DNA from: Rhizodiscina lignyota
Taxonomy: Eukaryota
Assembly: GCA_010015805.1 (NCBI GenBank)
Contig: ML978127.1
Location: 806,001 to 870,000, forward strand
Direction: 5' to 3'
Length of the DNA: 64,000 bases
In this document: piece by piece, positions 16,338 to 27,796 of the stretch
Layout: every line of letters begins with the position of its first letter
Numbering within the stretch: position 1 is the first letter of the stretch
Program-made: the position numbers and the translations under genes
Notes under the pieces: generated by a model
Databases searched by the model: none
What the model was told of the DNA's origin: nothing
What the model saw: only the letters and a program-made list of their open reading frames with translations

Positions 16338-18083
16338 TCACAGCCCATACACGAACGTCCACTTCCGATCAGAATATCTCTTATCTGTTCGCTCAGTCTC
16401 CTCATAAATCTCGTCAGGCGTCATTCCTCTGATCTTCTTTGCCTTGTACCGGTTCATGGCTCTCAGTTCCAAATTGTAGCATGCATATCCAACCCATGAA
16501 ACAGCCATAAGCCCTACAGTAACCTTGAGCGGGTATCGATAGTCCGGGCCGTACTTAGCCAAGAATAACTCTGATCCAATAATGCCACCCAGATTGCCCC
16601 ATCCATTGATACCCAAAATCATAGTTCGCTTACCCGGATCGGGAGTGTTTTGTGAGAGCCATGCAACGGTGATAGGTGCGCTGATGAACGTGCCTGCGAG
16701 AAGAACAACGAGGCCTCCATAGCGACCGTGTATGTTTTCCAGTGGCAATACGATGACGATAATCAGGCCGATGATAACGATCAGCAGGCCACCGAGGATG
16801 TGGTACGTCCGCTCGCGGAAGTGATCCGAAGAGTACGCGAAAGCAAGGAGCGTTATAGTTCCTAGCACGTACGGAGGGACAGTCATTAGGTTTGCTGTTG
16901 CGCCTTGGTAACCGAGGCCCTATGAGAGATGTTAATATCAATGGAAATGGAGCTTTGAACGAGCGGTAAGGGCTACCTTGACAACCTGTTATCACGCGGA
17001 GCAAGTCAGCACACTATTCAGCATCAAAAAGAGAGAGGAGGCCTCGTACTAATGGAAAAAATATCGTAAAACCCTGTGGGGCTACGCTCGCCAGAATGTT
17101 GAAGGGCAAAACGGCCCACAATTTCCAGTCGATGAAACCCTCAAAGACATCTTTCTTCGAAAGCTTGTACGTTGAGTCCCTATTCGCCTTCGCATCAATA
17201 TACATGCGCTGCTCAGCATACTCCTGTTCTGCTGGCTTGAGAAACCATGCTTTTCCGGGGCCGATAGCCAACCAAAATGGAGTTACGATCGAGAGCGCTA
17301 TCGTGATAGTCCCCTCAATAATGAACAGATACTGCCATCCGTGTAAACTGCCATCAATATGGAAGCATCCATATGCTATGAGCCCGCCAAATGCGCCAGC
17401 AATAGCGTAGGAGCCGTAAAATAGAGCAATCCGGAATGCGAGGTCGTAGCGCGGGTAAAAAGTGCTGAGGAAAGAGACACAAGTCGGATAGAAGCCAGCC
17501 TCGAAGACGCCAATTAGCAAACGGATGGCGATAAGCTGGGCCTCGGTCTTGATGAAGGCGTGTGAGAGCGTAAGGATTCCCCAACCCAAGCTGATGACAG
17601 CGATCCAGCGTGCCTGGCCAATTCGCTTGCCGATGGCTGCGGAAACGGGCTGTAGGGGAACATACTGTACATGAACGTTAGAGCTAGGTTCTGGCAGTAT
17701 CCGTTACCCTAAAATGGGTAGAGTTTGAATCTTACAGTGCAAAAGAAGAGCGACGTAGCCGTATTCACAGCTGAAGCGGGCATCCCAAGGTCCGTCGTGA
17801 ATCCATCAGTTTGCGCATTTCCAAGGTTGCTTCGATCAAGTCCGTTCAGGAGGTATATCAATACGCAGAATGGCAAAACGAAGAGGTCGAATTTAGCGTT
17901 TAGCGAGCGATGTCGACGTTTCTCGTCTGGGGTCTGCGGAACATATCCACCCAATCTCGAGTGCTCCAGCGCGGCTTGCAGCTGGATGACCTCCGCCTTC
18001 GCATCATCCTTCTGATCTAACGGAGCAACATTTTCAGTCTGATTGACGTTCTCTACCACGGAGGGTTTTTCCTGCGTAGCCAT
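16338..18083 (-). CDS. MFS transporter, allantoate/nicotinate permease (Dal5/Tna1) family, multi-exon
   Basis: KFDLFVLP, LDRSNLGNA, RLLIGVFEAGFYP, FYPRYDLAFRIALFY, GWQYLFIIEG, SDHFRER, GNLGGIIG. Confidence 0.9.
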
Positions 18084-18827
18084 TTTGTTGTCCCAGCTCT
18101 TGTCACAGGTGGTCTGATCTCCTGCCACCCCAAAGATGGGCACCAGCAGCTTATGAATTCCATAATTCTCGCGGTAAGAAGCAGAAGAGATATTGCCGAT
18201 CTCCCCGACACCGAGGGCACGGATTGCTGTTTTCTTGGTATCTGGAGTAATGCACCCCGCAAGTGTTCATGTTGGTGGTCGGTGATTGACGCGGTCGCAG
18301 TTATAATGTCGAGATGGCACCGTCGGAAATACAGCTGACTATTAACAGCATCGAGGGCGGATAAATCTTATAGGGGGCTTTAAGGTGGCTTCTGCTTCAG
18401 TTTATCGCGGAGGACACTGCAGCTCAAACAGAATAAATGTGTCATTAAACTTGGTGAAATTAGAGCATAAATATCCCAACTTCGCGTGAACGCGGCCCTC
18501 CATGTCTGAGTAAGGGCATTTTTTTTAATGGTGACGGCCTTAAAACCCGGCCGACAATCTAGCTACTCGCACTTTGTCCAGCCATTTGCGCCTCAATTTA
18601 GGCAAGCATGCTTCCGGAAATCCAAGACGGATAAAACCCCGGGCGTTGATGGTCATTCGTAGAATCTTAATGGTCGAGTCAAGTAAATGGACAGTGATAT
18701 GCCGAACTCACCGAATATCCGGTTACTGAGGATAGGTTTGCCTGATGTATACTTCTCAGGTATTCGAAGATCGTCGTAGCAACCCAGGATCAGAGCCTTG
18801 AATCATACTTTTGTGTGACATTCCAAC

Positions 18828-19929
18828 ATGGCGACAATACCAGTAGCATTTCCCGAGGACGTCAAAACCGCTCCTCTGGTAACACTGAAACTCGACAGAC
18901 TGATCCAAAGCGATGTTCAAGAGCAAGCGCGGTTATATGAGGCTAGCAAAGCACTCGGGTTCTTCTACCTTGATCTACGAGGATGCCCAGAGGGAGAATC
19001 ACTGCTTGCAAGCGCAGACATTCTGTTTAACGTTGCAAAGGATGTGTTTGAACTCCCAGTCGAGAAGAAGCTCACGTATGATTTCGCTGCCCAGGGGAAG
19101 TACTTTGGCTACAAGGGAATGGGCGCTGAAGTGATCGATGGTGCCGGCACTAGAGATCGGAACGAAATCTATAATGTTCGTTTAGCAGAAGTTATAACAT
19201 CTATTATATGCAATGCTAATCATTCTTTAGATTTCAAAGGATGACATTCTTGAAATCGGCGAGAGCTTACCACAACCCGGGCTGGTAAATGAGAGACGAG
19301 GACTCCTGAAAAGATATATCACTCAGAACAATGCTGTTCTCCAGACATTGTTCAACTCTTTCACCCAAGTCATGAAGCTACCATCATCATCATCCCTCGC
19401 CACTCGCCATCGTCTCTCCGCTCCCTCCGGCTGTCATGTGCGCTTTATCCGTGCTCCACCACAACCGCCCGAACAACGGCAAACAGCGCTCGGAGAACAT
19501 ACGGACTTTGGAAGCCTAACTATCCTGTTCAATCGCATCGGAGGTTTGCAGGTTCTGCTTCCCGGCTCGGAAGAGTGGGTGTACGTGAAGCCAATGCCCG
19601 GCTGTGCGATCATCAACCTCGGTGACGCGATGGTAAAATTCACTGCTGGACTGCTGAGAAGCAATCTGCACCGCGTAGTGAGCCCCCCGGGAGCACAGGC
19701 GGATCTGGTGAGGTATAGTCTAGTGTACTTCTGTAGACCAGAGCACGATATCAAGCTGGGCAGACTGAAAGGTGGTGACATCGACCTGGTTGAAGGCTCA
19801 GCAGAGGAAGCAGATGGCGAGAGCGCGCAGGAGTGGCTGAAGAGACGGCACCTGGGGAGGAAGGTCCAGTTCTTCAAGGGCAGTGAAAGCTGGGAGGGTG
19901 CTAAAGGTACGGAGGGGGCACGACTATAA
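18828..19929 (+). CDS. 2OG-Fe(II) oxygenase, isopenicillin N synthase-like (DIOX_N + 2OG-FeII_Oxy), one intron
   Basis: LGFFYL, EHTDFGSLT (HxD), GGLQV, INLGD, NLHRVV (distal His), RYSLVYF (RxS 2OG-binding). Intron ends at TAG 19230. Confidence 0.92.
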
Positions 19930-20184
19930 AACGCGAATGTTAAGGTAGGTTACCTCATAATTGTATCTACCATCATCACTTGCCTGGCTGTGATAGGAGA
20001 CTGATTTTCTGACTTGGAGACATTCACGTTTTGTTGCATCTTCATTGTATACTGGATAGACAGAATGAATGGGGTCCGTTATTTCTTCTCGCCTTAATCT
20101 TACACCTCGCCTTGCTGTAGTGATGCATCACTAACTATACTATACACGATCGATGAATGCCCTCCCGGGCAAAACCCATCCCAC

Positions 20185-23100
20185 TTAGTGAACCCCTACC
20201 CTCTCACCTCCGCTCAATCCCACCATCTTTCTATTTCTCTTCACTAGGCCAACAAGTTTCTTCTCAAGTGCTTCCGTATCCTTCCTACTCTCCACCACCG
20301 CTCTCTCCGCCTCCTGTACACTCGCGAATGCCGGTCCTGACCATCCCAGCTCAGGCACAGGACATTCCGCGTACGCTTCAAAGCCCCTCTTCGCACCAAG
20401 TCTCGTCTGCACAAGCCGGTCCATCGCGACCCACGCGTCAATGGTGCCAGGTCCGCCATTCGGTCCTAAGAAGCCTGGTGTTACAGAATGGAGAGATGTC
20501 GCAGACAGAGTTGCTGCGTTGGCAGTGGGGCCGATAGAACCAACAAGAGCAGGCTCGCCTCCAACGCCAACGAAACGGTAGGAGTTGCCATCGATAGCGA
20601 AGCCTGGAGCGTTGGCCCCGGCGTTAGTGCGGTCGCCTGTGGAACCGAGGTAGACTGCATCGGCGGGCTTGCCGGTCTGAGGATGTGGCAGTGAAACTGT
20701 CGGAAGAACGAACTGATTCACATACGACAGGGCCTCGTCAGCCGAAGGAGCCTTACTTGTCGCTGGGACGCCCATAGCAGGAGAGCCAGGGAGGACTGAG
20801 CCAGCTCTTTCGTCGGCTGCTGCCAGGAGCGACTGGGGATGCTGTGTCTGGATGTCTCGAGCGTATTGGTTGGGGTCGAATGTGCTCTCATAGAAGCGGT
20901 GGATATTCGGGATACTCGAGTTTGCGTTGACCAATTGCTGCATCCACTGTGACCGTGGCACTGGCGCCCACGATACTGGTCCACCATGCTCTGCATTCGC
21001 CATCAGGCTCTTCTCGAGCGCGATGTAGCGTTCTTCTTCTTCCGGTTTCAGCATCTTCAGCCATGTGCCGCTCTGACTGATCATATTTCTCGCGGACAAA
21101 CGTGACTCATCGACACCATTTGTCCATCTTATAGGCTCATGTTTCTCGAGCGAGTCAAAGTCCTCAGCTGCGAATGAGCGCGGTACAGTTGTCGAATTAG
21201 CGAAATCGACTTCTTCGAATGCCATCGTGGGGTCATGTCGGATTTGAGAAGATATGTTCGCGATACTAGTCATAAACATCTCCAATGAAGATGTTATGAT
21301 TTCACCACGTGCCACAAGATCCTTCAGAATAGAGGCTGAGCTGATAGACTTCCGTTCGGTGGCTTTACTCTGCGCAGATGCTGGCTCTGGACCTTGATTA
21401 GTAGTGCTCTCCGGAGCGGCAATTTCATCTTGCGTTGTCTCCTTGAAGCTATCAGATTTCTCCTTAACATCTGTAGCCTCTTCTTTTACATCTGCAGGGC
21501 CGGGTGAGGGTGGCCGACTTTCCACGGGCGTCTTGGACTTCGCAGATGCTGGTGCACTAGGAGTGTTTGCTTTCCTCTTCTCTTTCTTTTTCCGCCCAAG
21601 AATTGGTGCCTGTATAGGCTCTTCCTTCTTAATAAACGCCTCCTCCTGAGCTGCAAGTTTCGCCGCGGCCTTCTCCTTCCTCTCTCTCAAAGCCTGACTC
21701 TTGCTCTTCTTGATTGGCGCACTTCCGATTTTGCCTCCAACAGGCGGTGAACTCGCTCGTGACATTGTCAGAGACGCTGATGCAGAGGTGACGGATGCGT
21801 TGTCAGAGATGAACTCGCTTGGCGTTCCGGGAACATTGATGGACGCTATGCTAGCTTTGCGAGACGGACCGGAGAGGCCGGCAACTGCTGGAGCTGTGAC
21901 GGAGGTAGCTGAAATCGCTGAGGGCGGCGGCGGCGTCTCAGTCTTAGGGGTGGTAACTACGCGAATTGTACGCGGCTGGATGGTTCGCCGGATTGGAGAT
22001 CCCGTTGATATCGCGGCTGGAGTTGCGGGTCTAGAGTGTGCAAGCGTAGATGCCGTAGGTGGTTGAGATGATTTAACTATATCGTTTCTTGATGAAGCTG
22101 AGGTAGCTGGCTCGCTAGACCTCTCGGGAACAGTGGTAGCCGCTGCAATATCAAGCTTTCCAGGTGGTTGTCGTCTGGTCGGTTCAGGTGTTGCTTGCGC
22201 TATTGCCTTCGTTGCAGGGACATCACCTTTCACCGATTCTTTGACAGATACCATCGATTCATCTATCAAAGGTGCAGCTTTGTCTGAAACCTTGGGCCTT
22301 TCCGCGCTGTCATCGAGTTTACCTTCTGGCGCCTCTTGCTGCTTTAGCACTGCTTTACCAGATGATCGCGTCTTCGCTACGTCGATTGTGGTTTTAGGAT
22401 CTGCTAAAGGTGAAATAAAGGTCTGCCCTTCTGGACCGGACAGAGATGCGTCCTCATTTTTCACCTCATTTGCTTTGTTAGTGATATCTTTTCCCTCCTT
22501 AACAACGGATTGATTAGGCTTGATCTCCTTTCTCAGAGGTGTACCGACTCGAGCTGCGGGTGTAGCAGGAATCACGGGCACAGCGGGCATAATCGGATTC
22601 GAGATTGTCCTGGGCTTCTCGGGCATTTGCGTGGATTGCGACTCGTCAGGTACTGGCGGTGCTGGTGGTGCAAATCCAGGAGGAACAGTAGGCGTTGCAC
22701 GGCGCTGGGTGTCGCTGTTCGCAGGTGAGCCTGACGGCTGGGGCTGAGCTTGCGGAAGATCAAAGCCTGGCGGCGGCCTGTGAGTGAGCGAACCGAAGAA
22801 CAGGTCATCTGCGAACATTCATGTTAGCGAACACGTAAATTAAAAAGAAAAAAAGAAATCGGAGCTGATGCTGTGATGAGGGTGAATGTTGAACGGAATG
22901 CAACGAAGAGGAGGCATGGATCTATGGGTCTGGTCCTTTTGGTAGCAAGATTGCAAAGCGAGGCGCCGATGTCAGGGGCGGTTCTCTCATCGTCTTCGTC
23001 ACATCAGGAAAAATTGACAGGAAATTGAAGCCATCAAAGATCTACATAAGATTGCAAACTGTTGCCGAGCCCTCTCTCGGCTGGATTCGGCTCTGATGTG

Positions 23101-26100
23101 GAGCAATTAAGTACATGACGATGGCTTTGACGTTGACGAAGACGACGAGAGGTGAACCGACCGACCTAATGCAACGAAGCGAACGTGTCGCCCATAAGCC
23201 CGAATCGAAGAAGATGGAAAAGCGTGCAGGAAGGGTAGTGTGACCCGAGCACCAATCGCTAGCCAAATAAAGCCAGCAAAACAAAACTCCCTAGGCAGTC
23301 CTGACCGTTCACTGAGGTGCTGACATGCCTGATGCTGATTCGCTTTCTCCTTTGGTATGAGGTCCCGTAACGCCGCACGCAAAATGAGTAAAGGACACAG
23401 GCAAAAACATAAACGTCAACGTCAAAGGCCATCTTGTGTGAAATGCAATCTGGGAAGAAGGAAGGGGTGGATTTTGTAGGTTTTACCAACCCCGGCCGAA
23501 ACCACCGGCGTACATGGAGTTGTACCCACCTTGCCCAGCACCCTGACCTCCAGCTCCACCAGCGCCAAACAGTCCATGCCCACCGGCTGCGGCAGAGTTT
23601 TGATGCTGCTGCTGCAACCGCGCCGACAAAATACTCGGGTCCGCAACATTAACATCGACTACACCACCTCCAGAGGAGGAAGTGTTAGCATGCCTGTGCT
23701 TCTTCCCCTTTTTCTTCTGCTTCTGCGACGAGGCCACAGAGTCGGCGTAGCCGGACGCTGGCGGCCCATTGTACGGAGAGAAGCCGAGAAGACTGTGGCC
23801 AGGGGCAGGGCCTGCGGATGCTGGCGTGGTGGAGGTTGAAGGATAGTTGTGATGGGCAGGAGGTTGATGGTTGGGATGATGAAGGAGCGAAGAAAGATTA
23901 TACTCACGCTTTTGTGCGTCTGAAGCTTGACCCGCCGTCCCGCGTTGGCCCTGCATCATTTCTCTCAACAGTGCGTCTTGACGAGTTCCGGTATTGCCAC
24001 CGAAGCCGAGGCTGCTGTTGGCAAACCCATGACCTTGAGCAAACATAGCACCGCCACTCATAGGTGGAGTACCGGTTGTCTTTAGTCCAGGAGGAGGGCC
24101 TTGAACGCCACTTGAGAAGAATTGCGAGGACTGATTTTGGGAGAGTGGGTTGAAATGGCCGGCTTGTTGAGGCATCATTGACGACTGTTGATTCATGAGC
24201 TTGGGGTTGGCGACTGGCTTGATTGCTGCCGAGGATGAGGAGTCATTGGCAAATGAAAACCTCGACTGATTCCGTGCATGGCCAATAGCTCCAGCACCTT
24301 GCGGTAGTCCATGGTTCTGAAAGCTATTCAGAAGGCCTGCTGATTGGGGGGTGCCTGCGGATCTGAGCTGCTGTAGTAACACCTGTTGCTGCTGCTCACG
24401 AGGTGTAAGCCCGCGTCCGAGGTTCAGGTTTGAGATGTCGTCCGCAAGGCCACCGAGGCCTAGATGCGAAGAGCTGAGCTGTGAAGGTGGTTGAATGGCG
24501 TGCTGTTGCTGTACTAGATTGGCATCATGTCTCTCTTCCGGTTCGCCGCCAAGTTGCAAGCTTCCGCTAGCGCCTTCTGGGTGTTCATCTAAGTCTCCAG
24601 TTGCTATCGCCCTTGACACTGTTTGTGATTCAGCCTCCAATCTTCGACGTTCCGCTTCCTGCTCTTTGATCTGTCGTCGTTTTGCGCCTCCATTGGGATC
24701 GAAGAGTGGAGGAAAGTTGGACACGATCGTTAAGTCATCCTGGCCTAAGCTAGATGCGGCAAAGCAGAAATCAAGATCCGGGCTCGTGATCGCCTTTAGT
24801 AGACTGCTTAGATGGCTCTGTTGTGATGTTGAGGACTGCCTTGGAGGGTTTGTAGCTGGAACAGGATGTTTAGGAGCTTCGGTGACTTCTTCCGGCTGGG
24901 CTGCTTCCGACATTTCCTCTGCCGGAGAAATTACTTCAGACACCGATGGTGGTGCTTGCGATGCCGGCTCCGGCTTAGCGGCCATTGGACTTGCTGCAGA
25001 AGAGCTCGCAGTTGCTAGACTTGGTCTCCGACTTGTTTGAGCTTGCAAGGCTTTGTTTCCCCAATTCGCTGTTGATGGTAGGGCCGGGCCTTCCGCAGCA
25101 CTGCCGCTTGGACTTGACACAGCATCGCCACTTCCTTCTCTTTGCATCGGATGCGAGGCTGCACTGATCGGCTGTTGGGTCTGGGGAGGAGGCTGCGGTT
25201 GAGGAGGTCGAGTGGCGTTCGCGGTTGTTCGTGCTTGTTGTGGTTGTTGAGTGCCGATGACGTTCAAAGAAGACAAGTCATGCCTTGTAAAGCTTTCACT
25301 TTCTTCTCCAGGCTCGTGCAAGAACATGCAGTTCCTATTCGTGCAGTTTTCGCCACGTAAGAACGCTGAACAATACTTCGTCGTACCGTATTGCGCTCTG
25401 ATACCTGTTAGTGTATATACTTAAAAGCCTTGAACAAAATGCTTACCGTAACGTTCGATCTCCATTCTGCGATCCATCGACAGCCGCTATGCAGGTCGCA
25501 GCGTCTTCTTTCCGAGCGAATGTGACATAGACTCCCACCGATTGCGGAGGGTGCGATGCCTGCTTAGCTTTGCTGACTACGATCTTGATGATCTTGCCGT
25601 ATTGTCCAAAGTACTGTTCGCCTCGTAGTGTCTCCAACAACTGGTCCTCTTGTATGCGCGGGCTGAGGCCGGTGACATAGACAAGATTCTTCTGCACGAC
25701 GCGTAGGCCAGCGAGGTGTTTACGGTTCAGGTGGTCGGCTTCCTTTTTTTGCGCCTCCTTCTGCTTTGCTGCAGCCTGCTTCTTTTGTTTCGCTGCGTTG
25801 TCGGCCTTGTGAAGCGCCATCCTTGATTAAGTCAGTCGGCTGATGCTTCCAATGAGACGGTTGCAAGACTTACTCCTCTGGACTGACAGGCTTCCACTGT
25901 ATGTTTTTTTCGTCGTAGGGCCTCCGACATGCCGGACATAAGCCGTTCAGGGTGGTCTTGATGTTATTGTAGCAGAACTGGCATATCTGAACACAGTGTT
26001 AAGAGTCAGTGTCTTCGACCGCGTGATGAGTGAACATACCTGGTAGCCGCAGGGACAAGGCTTGAAGCTCTTGTCCATGAGATCGAACTCCTCGACGCAT

Positions 26101-26159
26101 AGTGGGCAGACTTCTTCCTCATCGTCGTCGATGAACTGGTCTTCTTGTATGCGCGACAT
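20185..26159 (-). CDS. NOT4: Not4 long isoform(s) using the 22808-20185 terminal exon (about 1699 or 1573 aa)
   Basis: Acceptor with polypyrimidine tract, GCTAAC branch and CAG ending at 22809. Donors G|GTGGGT (23529) and C|GTGAGT (23907) are both phase 1 and splice in frame into the 877-aa ORF, which ends in a coiled-coil-like EALEKKLVGLVKRNRKM. Confidence 0.75.
22979..23433 (-). other. Long-range inverted repeats (competing RNA helices) in the NOT4 intron / alternative 3'UTR
   Basis: 23414-23433 is complementary to 23120-23138 (19 bp, one bulge). 23134-23151 is complementary to 22984-23001 (18 bp, one G-U on the minus-strand RNA). Confidence 0.8.
23483..26159 (-). CDS. NOT4: CCR4-NOT E3 ubiquitin ligase Not4/Mot2, short isoform (about 840 aa)
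   Basis: RING CPLC...CPCGYQICQFC...CPAC, RRM (RVVQKNLVYVTGL...YFGQYGKIIKI...VYVTF), CCCH finger TKYCSAFLRGENCTNRNCMFLHE. Introns 26039-25987, 25873-25822 and 25446-25398. Ends YAGGFGRGW*. Confidence 0.95.
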
Positions 26160-26559
26160 TGCAGAGGACTCGAGGGAGGAGAGTGGCGGCGGACAAGGCG
26201 TGAGGAAGGTGAACGGCCGTGCACTTCTCTGAAGGGAAAGGGATTCAAAGTTATTAAGGTACACGAAGAGGAAGGCATATAAGGAACGCGTAAAACGTAG
26301 GACACGTGTGTCGGATGCGATTGTTTTGGGTTGGTGGTACAGAGATGAAGAAAGAGACGACGTGAAGCAGCTGCCCCAAACTCTGTACACGCTTCGCCGC
26401 TTGCCAAGCCTAGCTCGCCTTACATAAGCCGCGAGAGCTGTCGGAAGCTCTCCAGACGAAAGACATCACCGCCTGCATCTGCAGCAGAACAGCAATTGCT
26501 TTCCTCTGCAGCACGATTTTGCTCCAATGCTAATCAGAAGCCATTGACCTCCTCCAGCC

Positions 26560-27796
26560 ATGGTTCTTCGGCTATCCACAAGCCGCTCTCTGAGCGCTGC
26601 GGCGCGATCAGCCACCCGATCTCGCTCCCATATTACCGCACGCACATTCGCGTCAAGCGCAGTCAGAAGTAAAGATATTGCAGGAGAGAATGTGAACCTT
26701 CCGAACATGAGGGTATGTCTTGGAGCTCTCAGAGGCCTCGAGCTGCAGGCTGAGGCTTGCGAAGATCTCAACCTGTTCACAAGGGATTGCGCCGCTAACG
26801 TCAACATAGTTCGCCCAAAGGCCGAAGCAGGACGAGCAGTTAAAGGCTCCTATAGTGAATCCCTCCGACAAGTATGCAGACAAGGCAGAGGGCCTTCACA
26901 AATATGGCCAATACCTCATGTCATGTCTACCGAAATACATTCAGCAGTTCAGCGTTTGGAAAGACGAACTCACGGTCAGCTACTCTGACCCAGCAGTCTA
27001 CTGTGTAGAACTGATGTTCATTAGATATACATTCCCCCGAGTGGTGTTACTCCTGTATTCTCGTTCCTCAAATACCATACGGCCGCCGAATACACACAGG
27101 TCTCAGATATCACAGTGGGTCACAGTGGTACACATGATCGGTCGGGATTCCGCTAATATCCATAGTGTGTCGATTATCCCACTAAAGATCAACGTTTTGA
27201 GGTGGTGAGTTATTCTGTCTTAGAAGGTGAAATCCCGAGCCCTGCTAACTTGGCCTTGTGCTATAGGTTTACAACATGCTGAGTATCCGGCATAATAGCC
27301 GGATTCGTGTCAAGACATATGCAGATGAGGCTACACCCGTTCCGAGCATCACACCCCTCTATGATGGCGCAAACTGGTATGAGCGGGAAGCATACGACCT
27401 CTTTGGTGTCTTCTTTGTTGGACATCCTGATCTCCGAAGAATCATGACCGACTACGGATTCGACGGCCATCCTCTTCGCAAAGATTTCCCAATGACGGGG
27501 TGTGTATATCGGTGCTCCAGATTCTTAATATATGCTGACGAAGATTAGATACACTGAGATCAGATATGATGAGGAGAAAAAGCGCATTGTTGTTGAGCCC
27601 TTAGAGATGACTCAAGCTTATGTCAGTATGCTCACAGCCTGGATTTTGCAATCACTAACATCCACTGCAGAGGAACTTCAGAGGAGGGTCAGCTACATGG
27701 GAACAGGTTGGTCCTGGAGATGACCGCAAGCCAGATTCGTTCCAATTGCCGACACCAAAGCCGGAGCCACCGAAGGAGGAAGAAAAGAAAAAATAG
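26560..27796 (+). CDS. NDUFS3: NADH:ubiquinone oxidoreductase 30 kDa subunit (complex I), 6 introns
   Basis: Arg/Ser-rich mitochondrial presequence. [78 protein letters not shown]. Stop TAG at 27794-27796. Confidence 0.96.

Follow-up and report, generated by a model that had tools for sequence, protein, structure and literature searches.

We analysed the 3′ end of the Not4 gene of Rhizodiscina lignyota in a stretch of 64,000 nt (contig ML978127.1 of assembly GCA_010015805.1, positions 806,001 to 870,000), hereafter called the window; coordinates are window positions, and features lie on the minus strand unless marked otherwise. The proposed Not4 locus (20185..26159) has its start ATG at 26159, and its introns 1-3 measure 53, 52, and 49 nt (26039-25987, 25873-25822, and 25446-25398), in agreement with the roughly 50 nt given in a preliminary description made from the sequence alone. 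The common part of Not4 (exons 1-4, 23908..26159) encodes a RING, an RRM, and a C3H zinc finger, followed by a low-complexity region. A Pfam search recognised the RRM (RRM_1, E 5.9e-9) and weakly the CCCH zinc finger (E 0.07-0.3); exon 1 alone gave no Pfam match, and the Cys pattern of a C4C4 RING is present at the N-terminus of the spliced translation. Homologues labelled Not4 or MOT2 carry PF14570 and PF00076 in full-length matches, and Not1 binding and ubiquitin ligase activity are predicted by orthology. The one public run found to contain this DNA, X1, a genome-sized contig set that is probably the source of the assembly, agrees with the window base for base and contains no splice joints. 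No RNA run was listed for this species, and neither result bears on expression.

If its last intron is not removed, the gene encodes 840 aa and ends at a stop (23485-23483) 15 codons beyond the donor CAAG/GTGGGT at 23529 (D2; donor, tail, and stop together 23483..23529). This phase-1 donor and a CAG acceptor (22811-22809) would remove 721 nt (22809..23529, the outer intron; 546-1029 nt in relatives) and join Not4 to a downstream open reading frame (ORF) of 877 aa, which is single-copy in the genome, giving an open frame of 1699 aa; if retained, the outer intron is 3′ untranslated region (UTR) of the short mRNA. The acceptor region (22809..22858) contains a T-rich pyrimidine tract (22858-22842), the branch point GCTAAC (22828-22823), and the apparent ATG of the ORF (22818), which is not conserved. 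All these positions (donor, acceptor, branch point, T-rich tract, ATG, and stop) were rechecked and agree with the preliminary description, and recomputation returned the same in-frame 721-nt intron, in phase 1, and the same two protein lengths. In total, we located three 5′ splice sites (D1 at 23907, D2 at 23529, and D3 at 23114) and three acceptors (23659, 23042, and 22809), so that the protein of 1699 aa would be just one of up to five potential in-frame products (840, 757, 1699, 1616, and 1573 aa).

The long last exon and the two predicted ends of Not4

Loci of relatives were collected by one pattern scan of metagenome contigs, which by design leaves out forms that skip D1; it returned at least 111 loci, 110 with a complete tail and 80 unique, with lineages judged by peptide likeness. 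Among the unique loci listed, the GT of D2 is kept in 75/80, and the D2 codons are CAA in 76/80, GGT in 74/80, and GGG in 67/80, against a background of 46%, 31%, and 14% in the same ORFs. The short tail ends in Arg-Trp (RW) in 55/80 loci. Sixty unique loci extend at least 400 nt past the stop, and 50 of these show the downstream ORF, while the other 10 end 404-1106 nt past the stop. In all 50 loci with the ORF, the first RCTRAY plus YAG inside its open frame lies in phase 1, compared to just 26/58 such sites deeper in the exon. Both the donor and the acceptor thus appear to be conserved, in frame, beyond the need of the protein.

The last exon (874 codons, 20185..22808) has a ratio of nonsynonymous to synonymous substitution rates (dN/dS) of 0.08-0.25 in 11 of 13 pairs, with two pairs saturated, and appears to be under purifying selection. 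Its first methionine varies between 0 and 406 residues past the acceptor, and an in-frame Met within the last 15 intron codons, the counterpart of the ATG at 22818, is present in 6/41 de-duplicated loci. As the acceptor phase is conserved, dN/dS is low, and no start codon is conserved, the ORF is, judging from these comparisons, a translated exon of Not4 without a start of its own. An independent transcription start for the ORF, combined with a lack of junction reads, had been named in the preliminary description as a finding that would speak against its proposal; no conserved start codon was found, and neither were reads across the proposed junction.

A homologue search in which the last 419 residues encoded by exon 4 served as query gave 998 matches of 350-1117 aa and 397 above 1117 aa, and the best 120 of each length class were listed. 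Nearly all 120 short homologues end in a Gly-rich tail with RW, and 116 of the 120 long models match the 877-aa ORF, in agreement with the preliminary description, in which long annotated Not4 proteins of filamentous ascomycetes end alike. According to a crude regular expression, 63 of the 120 long models join at D2, 19 at or before D1, and 18 read the short tail first, with 20 unclassed; these models are gene predictions, not reads. Other genomes annotate the ORF as a neighbouring gene, and five such models are flagged as partial. The named matches listed belong to the Dothideomycetes, Eurotiomycetes, Leotiomycetes, and Sordariomycetes and to lichen fungi, and the nearest of them are Dothideomycetes. 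For Aspergillus fumigatus, a phosphopeptide with pS919 is given in Table 2 of PMC7773993; compared via Aspergillus homologues, the S919 motif lies ~120 residues beyond the junction in Aspergillus long models, and no Met stands between the junction and the S919-like peptide in 8/14 Eurotiomycete models. These comparisons support the conservation of both short and long forms across filamentous ascomycetes.

Transcript evidence comes from the contigs of relatives only. Six contigs are clearly RNA-derived (L037, L062, L066, L034, L031, and L081), and all six keep the outer intron and read across D2 to the short stop, making the short form the commonest assembled path. L062 and L066 end 22 and 510 nt past the stop with no poly(A) tail. 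As L037 and L081 run past the acceptor and cover ~420 and 780 nt of the last exon, the contigs point to a short form that arises at least partly by intron retention rather than by intronic polyadenylation.

The protein encoded by the last exon contains conserved Pro/Ser/Thr-rich motifs, a basic patch (~21606-21574), a folded module, and a terminal helix. The added exon had been described as largely disordered, which holds for the 613 of 877 residues with low AlphaFold confidence but not for a predicted alpha/beta module at ORF residues ~494-646 (20854..21357), where the predicted local distance difference test (pLDDT) reaches 86-94 at residues ~551-610 and averages 79 when the module is folded alone. 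Helices are predicted at residues 373-397 and 834-865; the second (20224..20319), with its conserved E..E.K...N pattern, corresponds to the coiled-coil-like terminal helix proposed earlier. No Pfam family was found for the long exon in the 43 members searched, no solved structure matched its sequence (best E 0.44), and Foldseek gave no fold match for the module at E<=0.001 (best VIA-align Z 3.9); matches in the Atlas were to uncharacterised ascomycete clusters only, at 0.85-0.86. A missing match does not establish a new fold. The conserved short motifs suggest a role of the long exon in protein interaction.

The upstream donor and an in-frame exitron

Upstream of D2, the donor D1 (AAGC/GTGAGT, 23907) begins a stop-free, in-frame candidate exitron of 249 nt (23659..23907), whose branch point GCTAAC (23689-23684) also codes for H-A-N and whose acceptor is the TAG at 23659. 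The D1 codons AAG CGT GAG T form a perfect donor that is invariant in 53/53 scorable loci, and CGT makes up 17% of Arg codons elsewhere. The peptide H-A-N-T is written as the branch point GCTAAC in 48/53 loci, and a phase-1 YAG follows within 48 nt of the HANT motif in 64/72, nearly always as TAG with the residue varying between V, L, and I. The exitron includes the basic patch KKKGKKHRH (23690..23716), which resembles a nuclear localisation signal (NLS), occurs in 119/120 short homologues listed, and may act in nuclear localisation. The 129 nt from the exitron acceptor to D2 (23530..23658) form a cassette-like exon with the conserved motif DPSIL(Q/S)AR.

Contig L034 lacks exactly the exitron (192 nt, GT..AG) compared to the 99-100% identical L017 and L089. 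The exitron is also absent from L007, L085, L092, and L096, which have no unspliced twin, so this absence may be genomic loss, and it is retained in L037, L062, and L066. In Rhizodiscina lignyota itself, the splice signals suggest that the exitron is spliced as well. D1 is kept in all five loci without D2 and in six loci that lost the exitron acceptor; as it would still need an acceptor there, D1, the stronger in-phase donor, can arguably also reach the acceptor of the last exon, which would give 1573 aa.

Some contigs deviate from this layout. In the RNA-derived L034, intron 1 and the exitron are gone and intron 2 is kept, which points to incomplete splicing of the molecule or to a mosaic made in assembly. 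In L035, L047, and L072, a short ordinary intron that lacks the basic patch seems to stand in place of the exitron, with D2, D3, and the stem described below remaining; in L047, a GTGAGT donor is found 59 nt upstream of this motif, the one matched by the scan. The Pleosporales-like loci L019, L031, L037, L064, L079, and L086 have lost the exitron branch point and TAG and keep D1. L064 is also without D2, so that D1 alone offers it an obvious way to make the long form.

A nested intron and its enclosing stem

The outer intron itself harbours a nested intron of 73 nt (23042..23114), with boundaries in the window inferred by homology, which runs from D3 (CAT/GTACTT, a weak variant) to a TAG acceptor. 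A canonical GTAYGT stands 222-343 nt upstream of the acceptor that opens the last exon in 48/50 loci, compared to 0.39 in each shuffled intron; the exceptions are L007, with GTACAT, and L037, already spliced there. In 33/41 loci, this donor is followed at 50-91 nt by a weak branch point (usually CTCAC or CTTAC) and a YAG, as scored by a regular expression that missed the inner branch point of the window. Excision of the nested intron was observed in L031 (53 nt, compared to L079), L081 (55 nt, compared to three 100% identical loci), and L037.

A long predicted helix (P1; 5′ arm 23134..23151, 3′ arm 22984..23001) encloses the nested intron, which in the fold is also flanked by a short stem (P2; 23127-23120 with 23035-23028). 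Compared with shuffled arms, those of P1 show stronger pairing, at z<=-3, in 27/41 loci, with -8.8 for the window. Covariation was assessed in 25 sequences, namely the window and 24 loci hand-picked for a visible stem, with the structure read from the window. Across these, the 18 window-derived P1 pairs are 82.8% paired (slid registers <=63%), and ten of the pairs show two-sided changes, with 30 such cells against 12.0±2.6 in shuffles (0/500). On the looser alignment A1, RNAalifold recovered just 5 pairs with the 3′ arm out of register, and the narrower, hand-picked set was re-aligned.

A model built from the 25 sequences matched 25 of 38 other loci at E<=0.01, 6 weakly, and 7 not at all, and finds one site in the 64-kb window. 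No second copy was found in the own genome by a DNA search, which reaches close copies only. Rfam gave no match: window positions 20000-26500 returned one chance hit (E 1.9), and 17 loci returned none at the gathering score. In L004, L049, L068, and L074, the inner donor is kept and the usual P1 stem is missing; an alternative local hairpin covers the donor in L004. Small hairpins also occur inside the nested intron (23093-23060), and relatives have at this place a short hairpin behind a C-rich run, unrelated to it in sequence.

Interpretation and comparison with known systems

We consider it likely that the locus is one Not4 gene, at whose 3′ end a conserved block of alternative splicing yields short and long proteins. 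D1 would be either spliced to 23659 or retained, as seen in contigs of relatives, giving a short protein without or with the NLS-like patch, and D3 would be spliced to the inner acceptor with the outer intron retained, again as seen in relatives, leaving a short protein of 840 or 757 aa. In a minority of transcripts, the last exon would be joined to D2, for 1699 or 1616 aa, or to D1, for 1573 aa, and the resulting long form would be an E3 ligase plus a conserved interaction module. The existence of this long form is suggested by conservation, gene models, and the one A. fumigatus phosphopeptide. The preliminary description had proposed the ORF as a last exon of Not4 with regulated short and long forms; the last exon and the conservation of both forms are supported, but the account was incomplete, missing the upstream donor and exitron, the nested intron, and the RNA stem, and no reads across its predicted junction (23530/22808) were found, here or in relatives.

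Several points weigh against alternative splicing of a single gene under the control of this stem. Transcript-derived joins from D1 or D2 to the last exon were found in 0/111 loci of the scan, whose pattern does not cover D1-skipped forms. No junction-spanning protein from a transcript source was found among the best 120 of 165 matches listed (0/120), and the spanning representatives checked were NCBI gene models in 10/10 cases, none a transcript. The best 120 of the 397 long matches all have an NCBI source, and no junction-spanning transcript was seen among the Logan members viewed. As assemblers drop minor paths, the missing long junction does not prove absence. The D3 of the window is non-canonical (GTACTT), P1 is weak or absent in 14/41 loci, including all six Aspergillus/Penicillium-like ones, and hand-picking and kinship bias the covariation numbers in favour of P1. 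More generally, the loci are mutually related, so that counts are not independent trials and binomial p-values overstate significance. From the literature, A. fumigatus Not4(1-693) grew almost normally (PMC7773993), and alternative splicing in Fusarium graminearum seemed uncoupled from nonsense-mediated decay (NMD; bioRxiv 2021.11.08.467853).

For the underlying mechanism, we give slightly less than an even chance to a competition of the strong inner D3 with the weak D2 for the last-exon acceptor, with P1 governing the choice. P1 would keep D3 beside its own weak acceptor, and splicing of the nested intron would take out the competitor D3 and leave a junction in the 3′ UTR of the short mRNA, whereas D3 joined to the last exon would fix the short form. 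Since the stem would tether D3 to the inner acceptor, its opening and closing would set the ratio of short to long form, suggesting that isoform choice is regulated. More speculative, and in our view doubtful, is that stem and nested intron constitute an undescribed conserved RNA switch in the Not4 pre-mRNA of filamentous ascomycetes that responds to a protein or small molecule and selects one of the three donors for the last-exon acceptor, with the exitron toggling nuclear targeting. The protein might be Not4 itself, through its RRM or zinc finger, or the signal might be CCR4-NOT activity. If true, such a switch would let the E3 ligase alternate between two forms, one short and yeast-like and the other long and equipped with an unclassified folded module.

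Among the rival explanations, it is unlikely that the long form arises from D1 only (1573 aa, with neither NLS patch nor cassette exon), D2 being an exon-definition or decoy site and no 1699-aa form existing. This would fit the perfect and invariant consensus of D1, a non-consensus D2 that is lost in 5/80 loci keeping D1, and the 19 of 120 listed long models that join at or before D1; however, D2 is otherwise kept (75/80), with three synonymous positions conserved and a phase that fits the acceptor, and is used by 63 of the same models, as far as a crude regular expression and gene models rather than reads can tell. Slightly less probable still is that the short, intron-retaining mRNA serves regulation only and is either degraded or not translated, so that long Not4 alone matters and NMD acts as an on/off control of its level. 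The short mRNA does have an intron in its 3′ UTR, which moreover exceeds 3 kb, and according to PMC7746235, which cites Zhang and Sachs 2015, both features set off NMD in Neurospora. Yet every transcript-derived contig encodes the short form, its tail is conserved as protein (the terminal RW), it contains the RING, RRM, and zinc finger, and a 693-aa truncation nearly suffices in A. fumigatus (PMC7773993). Finally, it is very improbable that the ORF is an independent gene transcribed from a promoter within the 721-nt gap: many annotations do give a neighbouring locus, in some Dothideomycete models the first exon is a mini-exon MAI-x-Y that extends to the inner donor, and no junction read was found, but an in-frame Met near the acceptor is rare (6/41), peptides upstream after a D3 splice are unrelated, five of the separate models are flagged as partial, 8/14 Eurotiomycete models have no Met before the S919-like peptide, L037 and L081 continue from Not4 into the ORF, and the conserved in-phase donors would be left unexplained.

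A single gene with two C-termini would explain why annotations are split, giving a single long gene for some genomes and a pair of genes for others. Not4 is a core regulator of both mRNA decay and ribosome quality control, and alternative splicing conserved there across several fungal classes, together with structured RNA, would be a rare example of functional splicing for fungi; the Not4 block would offer a defined, mutable switch. In the neighbourhood, a 2OG-Fe(II) oxygenase gene (2OG, 2-oxoglutarate; 18819-19929, plus strand) is convergent on the last exon of Not4, 255 nt from its stop, so that the 3′ ends of the two genes may overlap. Further features are a major facilitator superfamily (MFS) transporter at 17014-18266 (minus strand; Pfam MFS_1) and, upstream of Not4, an exon at 27267-27548 (plus strand) that seems to resemble the complex I 30-kDa subunit.

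In A. fumigatus, Not4 is about twice the yeast length, with a filamentous-specific C-terminal region (Shwab et al. 2020, PMC7773993). It shares with the protein studied here the N-terminal RING, the RRM, and the long C-terminus, but is treated as one protein in PMC7773993, whose main text contains no mention of "splic", "intron", or "cDNA" and has "isoform" in a reference only. Truncations tagged with green fluorescent protein were far more abundant in that study and changed in localisation (PMC7773993). This higher abundance would fit a tag at the end of the long C-terminus that shows a minor isoform only, and the published work could be reread in this way. Estimated from Aspergillus homologues, the 1-693 truncation probably ends just before D1 and would thus also lose the NLS-like exitron. 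The Magnaporthe oryzae gene MGG_11229 may be Not4, which a literature search did not confirm, and we do not count it as support. A locus matching MGG_11229 is listed as alternatively spliced, with 3 isoforms (PMC8942408, Tables S1-S2). Not4 is not mentioned in the main text of bioRxiv 2021.11.08.467853, nothing pertinent was seen in PMC10970525, and Not4 is not among the 15 fungal RNA motifs of PMC5640933 as far as these are described there. A literature search, with subscription journals mostly outside its reach, found neither Not4 isoforms nor such an RNA element in filamentous fungi. Of these findings, the long C-terminus has already been published; no publication was found that describes the isoform structure or the RNA element.

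In the fungal thiamine pyrophosphate (TPP) riboswitch introns of NMT1 and THI4, two 5′ splice sites compete for one 3′ site beside a conserved RNA structure. The Not4 block resembles these introns and the SDC motif (PMC5640933) in having two 5′ splice sites, one 3′ site, and an adjacent RNA structure. Unlike the TPP riboswitches, the Not4 element lies 3′ of the main ORF, would choose between protein ends rather than upstream ORFs, and has no match in Rfam; it also differs from riboswitches in that just one long stem is supported and no ligand pocket was seen.

Introns in 3′ UTRs are reportedly tied to NMD in Neurospora, and the short Not4 mRNA is like these in having a spliced junction beyond its stop codon. 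In stwintrons, according to the abstracts on them, the outer intron has its donor, branch point, or acceptor split by the inner one. A stwintron was considered for Not4 and rejected: 415 nt separate the inner intron from D2 and 233 nt separate it from the acceptor, all three signals of the outer intron are intact, and this intron is in most cases retained. What Not4 has in common with stwintrons and nested U2 introns is a small U2 intron within a larger one, which may be removed in two steps. It is similar to exitrons in its optional in-frame intron in the coding sequence, seen in both forms in relatives, and to intron retention with an alternative last exon in its short and long C-termini. 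In contrast to the single known cases, all three would occur in one block across several ascomycete classes, together with a covarying stem.

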